DNA from: Planctomycetota bacterium
GTDB lineage: Bacteria > Planctomycetota > MHYJ01 > JACQXL01
NCBI GenBank assembly: GCA_038059695.1
Contig: JBBTIZ010000004.1
Coordinates: 1 to 62,661 of the forward strand
Direction of reading: 5' to 3'
Length of the DNA stretch: 62,661 nt
In this document: piece by piece, positions 18,181 to 22,325 of the stretch
Layout of the letters: each line of letters begins with the position of its first letter
Position numbering within the stretch: the stretch's first letter is position 1
Notes under the pieces: model-generated
What the model was told of the DNA's origin: nothing
The model's database searches: none
What the model saw: only the letters and a program-made list of their open reading frames with translations
Translations under genes and position numbers: made by a program

Positions 18181-18756
18181 ATGGTAAGCGATATTATGAC
18201 CTTGCAAGAAGTAGCCGACTATCTCAAGGTCAACAAGCAGACTATTTACCGGATGTTAATTGCCAAACAGCTCCCGTCTTTCAAGGTGCGAAGTGAATGG
18301 CGGTTCAGAAAAGAGACGATTGACCAATGGATTGAGGAGCAGGGCGCTTCGGAGAGGGGGCGCCCTGCCCACTTTGAGATTCCTGTTATCGGACGTATCG
18401 CGGCCGGCGCGCCTATATTAGCCGAGGAAAATATTGAAGACACTATTACAATTGACAGGAATTTAGTAAGAAACCCGGATAATGTCTTTGCCCTGAAAGT
18501 CCAGGGTGAAAGTATGGTCAACGCCGGTATCAATGACGGCGATATAATCTTAATCCGGCAACAACCGACTGCGGAAAACGGGGAGATGGTGGCAGTGATG
18601 ATTGACAACGAAGCCACGGTCAAAAGATTCTATCTGGAAAAAGGTAAGGTCAAACTCAAACCCGAGAACGACAAGATGAAACCCATTATCGTTGACCCCA
18701 AGGATAAAAACATTAGGATTGTGGGCAAGGTAGAACGGGTGATAAAGAAAGTGTAA
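18181..18756 (+). CDS. Excisionase-type HTH fused to LexA/S24 self-cleaving peptidase domain
   Basis: MTLQEVADYLKV...IYRM...LPSFKV..EWRF (HTH_17 pattern); IAAGAP cleavage site, GESM Ser and TVKRF Lys dyad. Confidence 0.85.
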   Translation: MVSDIMTLQEVADYLKVNKQTIYRMLIAKQLPSFKVRSEWRFRKETIDQWIEEQGASERGRPAHFEIPVIGRIAAGAPILAEENIEDTITIDRNLVRNPDNVFALKVQGESMVNAGINDGDIILIRQQPTAENGEMVAVMIDNEATVKRFYLEKGKVKLKPENDKMKPIIVDPKDKNIRIVGKVERVIKKV

Positions 18757-18760
18757 TAAA

Positions 18761-19882
18761 ATGACATTGCCAGATAATGACATAAGGAAATGGGAGTATA
18801 GAGAGCATACCAGAGTAAAACACATTTTGCTTCAACAGTATCTGAAAGCATGGATTCCTATATTAGGGAGATATAACAGCACGATTTGCTATTTTGATGG
18901 ATTTGCAGGTAGAGGAGAGTATCTTGATGATAAGGGCGTTTTGATTGCGGAGGGTTCGCCAATCATTGCCTTAAAAGAAGCAGATGCATTTAGTGATAGC
19001 TTTAAGAAATTCTTGTGTTTTATTATAGAAAAGGATTCTGATAACTTCCAAAATCTCACGGCTGTATTAGACCGGGAAAAAACAAATATAAAAAACTGGG
19101 ATAAAATAGAGGTTGTAAAAGAAAATAACGAGTTTGCATTTGTTATTGATAGTGTTTTTAAATCTCTTGAGCAGAAGCAATCTACTTTAGTACCGTCTTT
19201 CTTTTTTATAGACCCTTTTGGATATAGCGGAGTACCATTCAAGGTAATCCAAAAAATCCTGTCTAATCCCAAAACGGAGGTGTTTTTTACTTTAATGACA
19301 CGCGATATTAATCGTTTTCTTGAAGTTGGCCACGCAGAACAACACCTTGATGAGTTATACGGAACAAAAGAATGGAAAAACCTTCAAAGTTCACCTAAGC
19401 CAGAGGTTGCATTGGTTGATTTATATAGAAAGCAATTGCATAACTCAGCAAAAGTAAAATACAGCTTGGCTTTTCGGGTTTGCATGCCGGAAATCACGCA
19501 GACGGTTTATTATCTTATTCACGTAACGAATAATTTCAAGGGTCACAATATCATGAAAAGCATTATGTATAATCAAAGTGCTGATGGCAAATTCGCTTAT
19601 TTGGGCCCAAATGATTTAACGGAAAAATCCCAGGTAAAATTATTCAATGTTAACAATATTAGCGACTTGAAACAGTGCCTGCTTGAACGCTTCAAGGGAA
19701 AAACAATAGAATTCGCCAAGATTCACGAAATAACCTGCGAGCCATGGTATACCGAACCGCCTTTTATTGATACGCATTATAAAGACGCCATAGAAGAATT
19801 AGAAAAAGAGAAAAAAGTTGTCATAACAGGCAGAGGACCAAGAGGAGGGTTAAATACATCTCGAATTGCTTTCTTAACTTAG
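18761..19882 (+). CDS. tcmP: Three-Cys-motif partner protein TcmP (SAM-dependent methyltransferase-like)
   Basis: HT..KH.LL..YL.AW..IL, YFDGFAGRG, FFFIDPFGY, YYLIH.TN...G...MK. Confidence 0.85.
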   Translation: MTLPDNDIRKWEYREHTRVKHILLQQYLKAWIPILGRYNSTICYFDGFAGRGEYLDDKGVLIAEGSPIIALKEADAFSDSFKKFLCFIIEKDSDNFQNLTAVLDREKTNIKNWDKIEVVKENNEFAFVIDSVFKSLEQKQSTLVPSFFFIDPFGYSGVPFKVIQKILSNPKTEVFFTLMTRDINRFLEVGHAEQHLDELYGTKEWKNLQSSPKPEVALVDLYRKQLHNSAKVKYSLAFRVCMPEITQTVYYLIHVTNNFKGHNIMKSIMYNQSADGKFAYLGPNDLTEKSQVKLFNVNNISDLKQCLLERFKGKTIEFAKIHEITCEPWYTEPPFIDTHYKDAIEELEKEKKVVITGRGPRGGLNTSRIAFLT

Positions 19883-19905
19883 AATAAATTGTAATATAAC
19901 CAGAT

Positions 19906-20676
19906 ATGCAGTCCATAACACGAAAGACGTTATTATACAAAAGCGAGGTGGAATACGCTGATTTTTGCCTTAACCACGTAGAGGGTTGTTCGCATGGATG
20001 CAGATATCCTTGTTACGCTTACTTATTGAAGAAGAGATGCGGAACAGTTAAGACCTATGCCGAGTGGTGCCGGCCTAAGATTGTGGCTAATGCCTTGGAA
20101 CTTCTGGACAAGGAAATTCCAAAATACAAAGACCAAATAGAATACGTTCACCTGTGCTTTACTACCGACCCCTTTATGTATAAACAGGACGAGATATGCG
20201 ATTTGAGTTTGGAGATTATTGATAAACTTAATAATCATCATATCCGCTGCACTGTCCTGACCAAGGGAATTTATCCGCGGGAACTGGCCGGCAGGAACGG
20301 CTTGAGCAAAAATAACGAATACGGCATTACCCTGGTCTCCTTAAACGAGCAATTCAGGAAGGATTTTGAACCGCACTCATCTAAATTCCGTGACCGGATA
20401 GAATCACTCAAGCACCTGCATAAGAAAGGATTCAAGACATGGGTAAGCATAGAACCCTATCCCACGCCCAACCTGATAGGCCAAGATTTGGATGAGATAT
20501 TGGAATCAATATCATTTGTGGATAAAATCATATTCGGCAAGATGAATTACAATGGCCAATCAACCAAGTTTGAATACAATAAGGAATTTTATAACAGCAT
20601 GGCTTTAGCAGTAATCAGATTTTGTAGGAAGAATAAAATTAATTATTATATTAAAGAGGGAACTATCCATGCCTAA
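19906..20676 (+). CDS. Radical SAM protein (spore photoproduct lyase-like)
   Basis: N.VEGC.HGC.YPCYA, LCFTTDPF, LTKG, GITLVS, WVSIEP. Confidence 0.8.
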   Translation: MQSITRKTLLYKSEVEYADFCLNHVEGCSHGCRYPCYAYLLKKRCGTVKTYAEWCRPKIVANALELLDKEIPKYKDQIEYVHLCFTTDPFMYKQDEICDLSLEIIDKLNNHHIRCTVLTKGIYPRELAGRNGLSKNNEYGITLVSLNEQFRKDFEPHSSKFRDRIESLKHLHKKGFKTWVSIEPYPTPNLIGQDLDEILESISFVDKIIFGKMNYNGQSTKFEYNKEFYNSMALAVIRFCRKNKINYYIKEGTIHA

Positions 20677-21370
20677 GAAATTCTTCCCTATCGGCACGGC
20701 GACCACGCCCCGGAAACAGGCCGCCATCGCCAAAGTCAAGTCCGGATTGCTGGACACCTCGTCCTACGAATACGCCAAGGGCAAATGGCGGGCCTCGCTT
20801 TTCAATGCCCTGCGCAAGGCCATACCGTCTAAATGGTTCAACAATGAGGATGTCTGGGATTTTGCCGAGGAATGTGTTGACGACGCCTTTACCAGAATCA
20901 AGGAATATGACGAGAAGCACAGGTTCCGTGATTTCCTGGTGGCTAAGATTGTCCTGCCGGCTTATGAAGAACTATTGCGTAAGCATAGACAACGGCTGGC
21001 CGGCGAGAAGAGTTACACTGAAAACCAGCCCAAAAAAGTCCATATCAGCGCCAAAAATCTGATTGACGATATCAAACCAAGTATGGAAAGGGAATTAGCA
21101 AAGGACGTCCTGCGTAAACTCAAAGCAGAGGACGAAATGAAATACGAGGTCTTTTGTTACCGTGAATTTGACGAATGGGAATACAAGGACATAGCGGACG
21201 AATGGGGCATAAGCGAAGCCAACGCCAGACAGATATACGGCCGGGTTAAAAAGGAGATTATCCCTGAACTCTTTGACCGTATAAGCCAGAGCAATAAGTA
21301 TCTTGACAAAGACCTGAAAATAAAGAACGACATACTAAAATTATTGAAGAAAGAAATTAAAGGGAAATAA
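20669..21370 (+). CDS. Divergent ECF-type sigma factor
   Basis: Region-2-like DFAEECVDDAF...FRDFL and region-4 HTH YKDIADEWGISEANARQIYGRVKK; coupled to a kinase. Confidence 0.6.
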   Translation: MPKKFFPIGTATTPRKQAAIAKVKSGLLDTSSYEYAKGKWRASLFNALRKAIPSKWFNNEDVWDFAEECVDDAFTRIKEYDEKHRFRDFLVAKIVLPAYEELLRKHRQRLAGEKSYTENQPKKVHISAKNLIDDIKPSMERELAKDVLRKLKAEDEMKYEVFCYREFDEWEYKDIADEWGISEANARQIYGRVKKEIIPELFDRISQSNKYLDKDLKIKNDILKLLKKEIKGK

Positions 21371-21371
21371 T

Positions 21372-22325
21372 ATGGCAAATGAACCGTGGAAATCACTGAC
21401 GGATGATTATTTTGAACCGGATGAGACCGATATTATTTACGATGCGCCCAATAAACGGCCTAAATTGGTTTATTGCTGGAGGGCGCACCACCGCCATAAC
21501 CAGAAGACGTTTGTCTTTAAGTCCATCCATACCAGCCAGATTGACAATCTGAATGAAGAGTTGAAACTGACTCGCTTTTTTACGAAACTTGACCACCCGC
21601 ATTTGACGCATGTTTACGATGTCATTCATCCCAGAGGTTCAGAATGGATTCATTATCAAATGGAATATTGCGAGGCCAAAAGTTTGTCTTATTACCTAAA
21701 AGAACCGTTGCCGGAGAAGAGATGCTTGGAACTTATCAGGCAGATTCTGGAAGGATTGGATTACCTCCATCAGAATTATTTGGTGCATCGCGATATTAAG
21801 CCGGATAATATTTTCTTCTGCAAGGACGGGATATTAAAGGTCGGCGATTATGGATTGGTGAAGTCACAAAAGTGGGTAACCAGTTTATCCGCGGTGGGGA
21901 CGCCTGGTTATTGGGCGCCCGAGATGCAACCTGATGCCAGCCCTGAGCTGCATGGCAAACGCAACCATCGGGCTGACCTGTATTCGGTTGGGATTATCCT
22001 TCGTCAGATGGTATCGGGTAAATACCCGCCTTTTTCTGCGCAGAAGGAACCGCCGAAGGGAGTTCGGCCGGGACTCTGGGATATTATTCTTAAAGCCACT
22101 GATTCTGAACCGGACAAACGATTTCAATCAGCCCGGGACTTTTTTGCAGCGCTAAAATCTTATGCCCAGCCACCAGAAGAGAAACTCCTGGAGGCTATTT
22201 TCAAGATGCCAATCGAGAAGTCTGCTCCCCGAAAGATAAGAAGGAGTTTAACATTAGAAAAGATACTCGCACCGCCGGGGTCACAAGGTGAAACAGCACC
22301 AGCAACAGGACCAGTAACTTTGTAA
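21372..22325 (+). CDS. Ser/Thr protein kinase
   Basis: HRDIKPDN, KVGDYG, GTPGYWAPE, RADLYSVG; canonical glycine-rich loop not visible. Confidence 0.85.
   Translation: MANEPWKSLTDDYFEPDETDIIYDAPNKRPKLVYCWRAHHRHNQKTFVFKSIHTSQIDNLNEELKLTRFFTKLDHPHLTHVYDVIHPRGSEWIHYQMEYCEAKSLSYYLKEPLPEKRCLELIRQILEGLDYLHQNYLVHRDIKPDNIFFCKDGILKVGDYGLVKSQKWVTSLSAVGTPGYWAPEMQPDASPELHGKRNHRADLYSVGIILRQMVSGKYPPFSAQKEPPKGVRPGLWDIILKATDSEPDKRFQSARDFFAALKSYAQPPEEKLLEAIFKMPIEKSAPRKIRRSLTLEKILAPPGSQGETAPATGPVTL

Follow-up and report, generated by a model that had tools for sequence, protein, structure and literature searches.

The five consecutive genes at positions 18181-22325 of the DNA studied here, a 62,661-nucleotide stretch (hereafter the window) of contig JBBTIZ010000004.1 in assembly GCA_038059695.1, are most probably a juxtaposition of two independent units in a cargo hotspot of an uncultured groundwater planctomycete. 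The first unit (window 18063-20663), judged from its content and its recurrence elsewhere, appears to be a portable and self-contained cassette comprising a promoter, a LexA chimera, the TcmP protein and a radical S-adenosylmethionine-like (rSAM) partner with a Cx3Cx3C motif; while the second (20669-22325) appears to be a lineage-specific pair formed by a sigma factor of the extracytoplasmic function (ECF) type and its cognate Hanks-type kinase. An earlier note on this DNA had proposed that all five form one module, inducible by DNA damage and serving modification or anti-phage defence, with sigma and kinase as its own output. Since the first three genes travel together with their own promoter, the idea of a damage-inducible module is supported for these genes, and not for all five; and the sigma/kinase output was not upheld, because the pair recurs apart from TcmP/rSAM.

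All five open reading frames (ORFs) were verified on the + strand: an HTH_17-S24 LexA chimera (18181-18756, 191 aa; Pfam, NCBIfam), TcmP (18761-19882, 373 aa; TIGR04474), the rSAM-like partner (19906-20676, 256 aa; PF04055 Radical_SAM), an ECF-like sigma factor (20669-21370, 233 aa) and a Hanks-type Ser/Thr kinase (21372-22325, 317 aa; Pkinase). Their order, the intergenic gaps of 4, 23, -8 and 1 bp, the AT-richness of the group (GC content 0.424 versus 0.51 in each flank) and the adjoining Type III restriction-modification (RM) system (PADLOC, Pfam), all described in the earlier note, were confirmed. Its domain assignments were likewise supported by Pfam and NCBIfam, the sigma label coming from sub-threshold sigma models together with PDB profile and fold searches. 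The surroundings of the genes were also found to be those of a defence island. No credible terminator between the five genes was seen in a scan of the region, nor was any Rfam match found in window 17500-22600. The host genome (G000) is a metagenome-assembled genome (MAG) of 1.27 Mb, 55% complete, and the relatives of the sigma gene originate from Planctomycetota/Brocadiia groundwater MAGs.

The boundary between the two units emerged from block comparisons with other loci (numbered here with the prefix L). Window 18063-20663, promoter included, matched L109 as one 2.6-kb block at 86.7% DNA identity (blastn), with protein identities of 78% for the S24 protein, 88% for TcmP and 96% for rSAM. This block, carried by both L109 and L110, ends 5 nt before the sigma start; in L109 it stands behind an AlwI-type RM system, and the small unrelated genes after it (66, 68 and 246 aa) include neither a sigma nor a kinase. 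The same S24/TcmP/rSAM series was identified in L007, where a NOV_C nuclease-like gene and an 87-aa gene are inserted exactly at the 4-bp S24/TcmP gap, and 380- and 381-aa proteins of no assigned family are encoded downstream of the cassette.

Similarly, the sigma-kinase pair was found in other company. In L001-L004 (sigma 86-87% identical), the gene order is Type III RM, a 22-bp-period array, an HTH_17-S24-MNT fusion, HepT, a 168-bp spacer, sigma and kinase; therefore, a toxin-antitoxin (TA) pair occupies the TcmP/rSAM slot. More distant members (L005, L006, L012-L018 and L033-L040; sigma 30-60% identical) carry sigma and kinase without S24, TcmP and rSAM, and in L101 the sigma gene is preceded by a 175-aa gene and the kinase gene is followed by a ParA-like gene. 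Altogether, about 20 other sigma-kinase loci were devoid of TcmP/rSAM. From the other side, no sigma or kinase was found at the other TcmP loci (29 planctomycete loci with 1.5-kb flanks, L008-L010, L109/L110 and 7 viral contigs), and a window-type S24 regulator was present at none of them except L109/L110.

Outside the window, rSAM abuts sigma only in L103/L104, which match window 19893-22353 at 86.9% DNA identity (rSAM 93%, sigma 86% and kinase 93%) and share the -8 rSAM/sigma overlap, with a 21%-identical variant in the place of TcmP. Because this junction is common only to one close lineage, it denotes a single inherited event in one small clade. Thus, linkage of the sigma-kinase pair to tcmP-rSAM in other genomes, on which the five-gene proposal depended, was absent apart from these two loci, in which the junction is shared by descent. 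Moreover, the sigma family was detected in 6/6 sampled host-family genomes and one sister family, and elsewhere among 401 Planctomycetota the matches were only weak and of generic ECF type; TcmP was patchy, occurring in 57 of the 401 genomes and in two of the six host-family members. These discordant phyletic patterns agree with separate origins, as does the difference in GC content between the blocks, where TcmP has the lowest value of the five genes (0.36), followed by rSAM (0.41), and S24, sigma and kinase are each at 0.46.

In this context, we consider quite improbable an integrated five-gene system, in which damage would de-repress the operon and the kinase and sigma would act as a dedicated output or amplifier of TcmP/rSAM. 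The tight packing behind a single strong promoter without internal terminator, the rSAM/sigma overlap conserved in L103/L104, and the best PADLOC matches of the kinase, which are the defence kinases mad6 and PD-T4-6, would be expected from such a system. However, both blocks are found on their own at other loci, the junction that is shared goes back to one event, sigma and TcmP differ in phyletic pattern, and the matches to mad1, mad6 and PD-T4-6 are either generic or short of the curated thresholds (77 vs 80 bits for mad1; 84 vs 460 bits for mad6).

Under the two-unit explanation, the cassette would have landed, in this lineage, exactly on the sigma start codon, removing the region upstream of sigma. 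The sigma ATG lies within the last rSAM codons, with GAGG 8-9 nt upstream, and the upstream region that sigma has elsewhere (168 bp in L001) is gone. Consequently, sigma and kinase are probably expressed by read-through, being co-transcribed from the promoter gated by the LexA chimera, or else from weak internal promoter-like sites at 20500-20580. As a separate observation, the HepT-sigma spacer of L001 (8066-8233) contains an inverted repeat, CCCCGTTAGAAAG...CTTTCTAACGGGG.

The top sigma70-type promoter of the region was located at 18080-18108 (TTGACA-17-TATATT, 11/12 in the promoter scan), with the -35 TTGACA at 18080-18085 and the -10 TATATT at 18103-18108, inside a promoter/operator block (18063-18180, + strand; operator putative) delimited by the promoter scan and by conservation upstream of homologues. 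Three direct (A/C)CTATA boxes with exact 10-bp spacing (18091-96, 18101-06 and 18111-16) overlap and follow the -10. A near-identical ACTTGACAA-N-ACTATAATATACTATATTATCCTATAGATA, which contains the consensus -35, the -10 and the three boxes, precedes each HTH_17-S24 homologue examined (window, L001, L090, L105, L108 and L109), independent of cargo. The direct repeats would suit head-to-tail binding by Xis/MerR-type domains.

The protein encoded by the first gene combines an HTH_17 domain (PF12728, 56.6 bits, residues 6-54) with a Peptidase_S24 domain (130.4 bits, residues 68-184) and scored 148.2 bits against the NCBIfam LexA equivalog TIGR00498 (cut-off 110.95). Identity to canonical LexA proteins, which align with the S24 part alone, reaches 66%, and the LexA winged-helix domain (PF01726) is replaced by the Xis/MerR-type HTH_17. 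The motifs of LexA-type self-cleavage are intact, with the cleavage site at A75-G76, the catalytic Ser at S111 (GESM) and Lys at K148 (VKRF), in line with the S24 assignment of the earlier note. This HTH_17+S24 architecture accounts for about 80 protein clusters, which are named LexA in databases. Furthermore, RecA is encoded in the host genome and in 12 of 13 relatives, and a strong S24 protein was not found in the genus-mate G102 (96% complete). Because the gene is accessory within the family, the chimera is unlikely to be a global SOS regulator. We propose that the repressor would bind the CTATA boxes and keep its own operon shut, and that RecA filaments on single-stranded DNA, formed upon DNA damage or attack by phage or foreign DNA, would stimulate self-cleavage at A75-G76, de-repressing TcmP/rSAM.

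Cargo behind the same repressor was diverse. With a near-identical promoter/operator, it includes an AccI-type restriction endonuclease and an Eco57I-type methyltransferase in L105-107, a C5 methyltransferase and a BpuJI-type endonuclease in L090, MNT (fused) and HepT in L001 and L092, and, in L108, two methyltransferases, a PLD nuclease, an HNH-like protein and an rSAM protein 70% identical to that of the window. An ORF6N-domain gene, among others, is headed by the repressor in L091, and TcmP/rSAM in the window, L007 and L109. Since one repressor heads such varied RM and TA cargo, it is a portable controller for modules of restriction and toxin type, and, as far as gene order can tell, TcmP/rSAM occupies the same regulatory slot as the RM systems. 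As a more tentative proposal, for which we claim limited confidence, the chimera and its CTATA promoter may constitute a self-contained and portable SOS switch, transferable from locus to locus, that gates self-dangerous DNA-targeting cargo (Type II RM, MNT/HepT and TcmP/rSAM).

Some of the proteins at these loci deserve a description of their own. The fusion of HTH_17, LexA-type S24 and MNT nucleotidyltransferase domains, followed by HepT (L001 6799-7734; L092 7201-8226), was present in at least eight protein clusters (P0147, P0150, P0154, P0164, P0201 and P0204-P0206) and would represent a TA pair with the antitoxin fused to an autocleaving repressor. A 380-aa protein without family match is encoded behind S24-headed cargo in both L007 (3342-4484) and L092 (5655-6800), the two copies being 82% identical, and in L092 it adjoins a RhuM-family gene. 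In L108 (5001-6520), the rSAM gene is preceded by a gene for a 251-aa protein with a weak HNH_5 match, which may be an alternative rSAM partner, and no TcmP is detectable there.

TcmP scored 206.8 bits against TIGR04474 (cut-off 53) and carries the invariant motifs DxFAGRG and FFFxDPFG, which resemble methyltransferase motifs I and IV, followed by a GMT-like winged helix-turn-helix at the C-terminus. Relatives exceeded 1000 in a protein search, and a phage origin is unsupported, as TcmP was rare in viral contigs (7 loci). The rSAM protein scored 45.9 bits against PF04055 (cut-off 29.5), and no PDB sequence homologue of it was found. Its cluster motif is C28-x3-C32-x3-C36 (CSHGCRYPC, residues 28-36, nt 19987-20013), which has one residue more than the canonical CxxxCxxC and so does not match it, the Pfam domain still being above its cut-off. 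This motif was conserved in the TcmP partners of five other loci (L007, L041-43 and L045). The pairing of TcmP with a Cys-motif rSAM-like protein, named in the earlier note, is thus borne out by the partner 23 bp downstream. The note had also suggested a PADLOC scan, in which TcmP matched the A components of two defence candidates (PDC-M30A, E 1e-34; PDC-M41A, E 5e-13), but the matches to the corresponding B components were weak (E 4e-4 and 3e-4, about 18 bits).

A notable asymmetry was detected between the two subunits, since rSAM is conserved and TcmP is not (93% vs 21% identity in L103; 76% vs 21% in L054). Such a pattern is that of a catalytic subunit working with interchangeable specificity subunits, and we propose that the pair would act on DNA in a restriction-modification-like manner, with TcmP as a fast-evolving, methyltransferase-shaped targeting subunit and rSAM as a near-invariant catalytic subunit. 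SOS-type DNA repair, with an SPL-like enzyme reversing a lesion to which TcmP binds, is a different role for S24/TcmP/rSAM that we regard as unlikely. Indeed, by family the rSAM protein comes closest to the SplB-like "DNA repair photolyase" groups (PA0069 and Rv2578c families), TcmP proteins elsewhere pair with or fuse to DUF5131 or SPL-domain (PF20903) proteins, some adjoining RecG, and the cassette is under LexA-type control, all of which a repair function would accommodate. Nevertheless, the identical repressor and promoter otherwise head RM and TA modules, the fast divergence of TcmP against a conserved rSAM is what a specificity subunit would show and a lesion sensor would not, the genes are accessory, low in GC content and patchily distributed beside RM genes, and TcmP matches the PDC-M30/M41 candidates. 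Therefore, the restriction-like role remains our preferred reading of the cassette. No experimental study of TcmP, DUF5131 or PDC-M30 emerged from the literature searched, and one paper lists the TcmP gene SMa2243 of Sinorhizobium (S.) meliloti beside SMa2245, which encodes the Hna defence helicase. TcmP/rSAM is a pair already catalogued but uncharacterised, and what is new is the portable LexA-type switch ahead of it, together with the divergent ECF-like sigma that has a kinase as its partner.

Regarding the second unit, the sigma protein scored below the cut-offs of TIGR02937 (38.5 vs 42.9) and Sigma70_r4_2 (21.1 vs 25.7). Its family profile retrieved only ECF sigmas from the PDB, AlgU and sigmaE (E 0.011-0.29), spanning sigma2 to sigma4, and its structure model (predicted local distance difference test, pLDDT, 74) had exclusively ECF sigmas as top Foldseek matches. 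The family is a rare one: a collection of 5.8 billion proteins contains 12 clusters of it. A 50-residue N-terminal extension contains G9, T10, T12, T13 and K16, invariant even at 30% identity, together with a near-invariant P14; residues of this GTxTTP motif are candidate phospho-acceptors for the adjacent kinase, and sigma would most likely be phospho-switched through it. The acidic sigma2.2 motif is kept (D61-V-W-D64-F-A-E67-E68), and an ECF43-type Thr switch, in which the motif is uncharged, a conserved Thr standing in place of DxxD (PMC13147305), was for this reason rejected.

The kinase (Pkinase, 126.8 bits) retains K50 (FVFK), HRDIKPDN at 139, DYG at 159 and APE at 182, and is short and soluble, with no sensor domain. 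In the relatives, kinases reach 500-940 aa and include TPR and further domains of the kind usual in ordinary signalling. In all loci with downstream sequence a kinase lies next to sigma, so that the two always form a pair. Identity of the window pair to the pairs of genus-mates (L033, L034, L037 and L039) amounts to only 31-37%, although RecA is 90-96% identical, which denotes alleles that are exchanged and not vertically inherited. In L101, sigma is 86% and kinase 39% identical, and at the DNA level only the sigma ORF is homologous to the window; homology that stops at ORF borders indicates cassette-like exchange of single genes. In brief, the sigma-kinase unit consists of a divergent ECF-like sigma with its kinase partner, is exchanged rapidly and occurs in one planctomycete order only. 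Two further observations were made on its relatives: a short kinase gene followed by genes for a ParA/CbiA-type ATPase and a 170-198-aa protein of no assigned family was found in both L101 (1381-3522) and L006 (1492-3735); and no terminal overlap was detected in L006 and other short sigma contigs, giving no evidence of circular elements.

The hotspot itself has the sigma-kinase pair at one edge and a multicopy 266-aa orphan protein at the other, and its interior varies by genome, with Type III RM, AbiEii, AAA_15/21 ATPase, DUF4268, HepT/MNT or TcmP/rSAM. This constant position beside varied conflict-related cargo raises the question of whether the pair is a conflict regulator, the kinase sensing infection and sigma turning on the hotspot cargo, the S24 cassette included. 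The divergence of alleles between genus-mates and the re-assortment of sigma and kinase in L101 are what such a role would predict. On the other hand, the cargo is equipped with a sigma70-type promoter and a repressor of its own and lies upstream of sigma, not downstream, a shared ECF-type promoter motif was not found, and the kinases of relatives carry ordinary-signalling domains, so that we hold this role to be highly improbable. We therefore retain the explanation of two independent units, with the second probably brought under the promoter of the first in this lineage.

Several points weigh against this explanation or against the mechanism attached to it. The -8 overlap, with its GAGG Shine-Dalgarno-like sequence, has been kept across about 13% DNA divergence in L103/L104, and this stable rSAM/sigma juxtaposition could have gained a function. 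The sequence of L007, one of the loci in which the cassette recurs, ends at the S24 gene. The CTATA boxes are a putative operator, proposed from their conservation upstream of homologues. As for TcmP, comparison with E. coli RlmJ (hhalign) gave a probability of 1.7%, with only motif I aligned (YFDGFAGRGEY vs YLDTHAGAGRY), no PDB sequence homologue was found, and no biochemical function was found in the literature for any TcmP/rSAM pair. Finally, the Gly-rich loop of the kinase is not recognisable, the Pfam match beginning at profile position 16.

Upstream of the five genes, the low-GC island (about 12.9-22.3 kb), which contains them, also holds the Type III RM genes for Mod (12869-14914, + strand; PADLOC MTase_III E 6e-206, Pfam N6_N4_Mtase) and Res (14920-17631, + strand; PADLOC REase_III E 8e-296, Pfam ResIII and RE_endonuc). 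These lie directly upstream of the five genes, and L001 shares them at 84-86% DNA identity; they are neighbouring cargo of the same island, outside the operon. The flanks of the island are chromosomal, with GroEL, a GlmU-like gene, Lon and Hsp20. A second low-GC island (0.34-0.40) was observed at window 44803-49735, with an Eco57I/MmeI-type methyltransferase fusion (847 aa) and a sigma54-dependent activator (481 aa). Right after the kinase stop (window 22326-22385) there is a hairpin with a 9-bp stem, TCAGGAAGT...ACTTCCTGA, without T-run; since the 44 bp flanking it recur in L101 behind another gene, this region behaves as a conserved cassette junction.

Between Res and the promoter lies a tandem array of about 12 units with a 22-bp period (17730-17989, no strand; TRF), and upstream of Mod, on the - strand, the gene for the orphan protein, "fam1" (11814-12614, 266 aa), which had no Pfam or NCBIfam match and gave a poor structure model (pLDDT 56). 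The orphan gene lies divergently upstream of sigma at eleven other loci (L005, L006, L013, L014, L017, L018, L033, L035, L037, L039 and L040), and the array is near sigma at twelve (L001, L005, L014-16, L018, L033, L034, L037-39 and L101). G000 contains 34 22-bp-period arrays and 13 copies of the orphan protein, with no common promoter of these 13 copies seen by eye, and the array is absent upstream of the S24 cassette in L105, L108 and L109. Accordingly, the array is one copy of a multicopy lineage satellite, outside the S24 cassette. The adjacency of array and orphan protein to sigma across genomes is real, but their interpretation as a specific sigma-kinase "frame" was rejected, because both are multicopy and the array is missing from other S24 cassettes. 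In addition, all three HTH_17-domain genes of G000 start 100-240 bp downstream of a 22-bp array (chance expectation about 5e-7); besides the S24 chimera (start 18181), these are at C25 1968-2222 and C11 40354-40647, the latter two with a different C-terminal domain.

TcmP with its three-Cys rSAM partner is among the most widespread two-gene modules of no known function, and LexA-type control offers a testable handle, namely induction by DNA damage or by removal of the repressor. If the chimera is indeed such a portable SOS switch, TcmP/rSAM would be a restriction-like radical-SAM system that modifies or damages DNA and is kept silent until DNA damage or invasion; and in this lineage the switch would have taken over a phospho-regulated ECF-like sigma as well, thereby linking a regulon specific to the lineage to DNA damage. 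A false lead is also removed, in that the sigma-kinase pair is not part of the TcmP/rSAM module.

Compared with the catalogued TcmP/three-Cys pairs (TIGR04474; PDC-M30, PDC-M41), the cassette is alike in a TcmP above cut-off with a small three-Cys rSAM-like partner 23 bp downstream, and in being a two-gene module of low GC content and patchy distribution beside RM genes. It differs in that the partner is a Cx3Cx3C Radical_SAM protein, and not a clean DUF5131 or PDC-M30B (18 bits), and in that the pair stands behind a LexA-type repressor. Likewise, the first gene resembles LexA and phage CI-type S24 repressors in its Ala-Gly site, Ser/Lys dyad, LexA score above cut-off, the presence of RecA and a gene layout that suggests autoregulation; whereas its DNA-binding domain is HTH_17 and not the LexA winged helix, its putative operator consists of three direct 10-bp repeats and not a palindromic SOS box, and the gene is accessory and travels with cargo cassettes, some relatives being fused to the MNT antitoxin.

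Similarity to MADS was at the level of domains only, as HTH_17 resembles MAD1, the best PADLOC match of the kinase is mad6 and a methyltransferase system is adjacent; membership was rejected, since the mad1 and mad6 scores fell short of their cut-offs and no other mad matches were obtained among the seven proteins scanned. Kinase-controlled ECF sigmas, for which the earlier note had mentioned a precedent, are indeed established, as in ECF43 (EcfP/PknT and EcfK/PknS) and the planctomycete groups ECF59-62 (PMC7826278, PMC13147305). The window pair shares with them an ECF-like sigma2-sigma4 protein without an anti-sigma factor, a Hanks kinase that always follows (1 bp downstream in the window) and a host of the phylum Planctomycetota. 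In contrast, the window sigma does not reach the curated ECF cut-offs, retains the acidic sigma2.2 residues lost in ECF43, and has a 50-residue N-extension with invariant GTxTTPxK, its alleles being hyper-divergent and re-assorted among near relatives.

Finally, CapH/CapP of CBASS (bioRxiv 10.1101/2022.04.27.489752) and the WYL repressors CapW/BrxR (PMC11662680) are parallels in role: there as here, a repressor gene stands ahead of diverse immune cargo, and a DNA-damage signal is predicted to inactivate its product. In those systems the CapP protease cleaves CapH or the WYL protein binds single-stranded DNA, whereas a single-chain, LexA-type and RecA-stimulated self-cleavage is predicted for the window repressor, whose link to defence is one of genomic association. 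The LexA chimera is likely to represent a new class of defence-cargo controller, alongside CapH/CapP and the WYL repressors.

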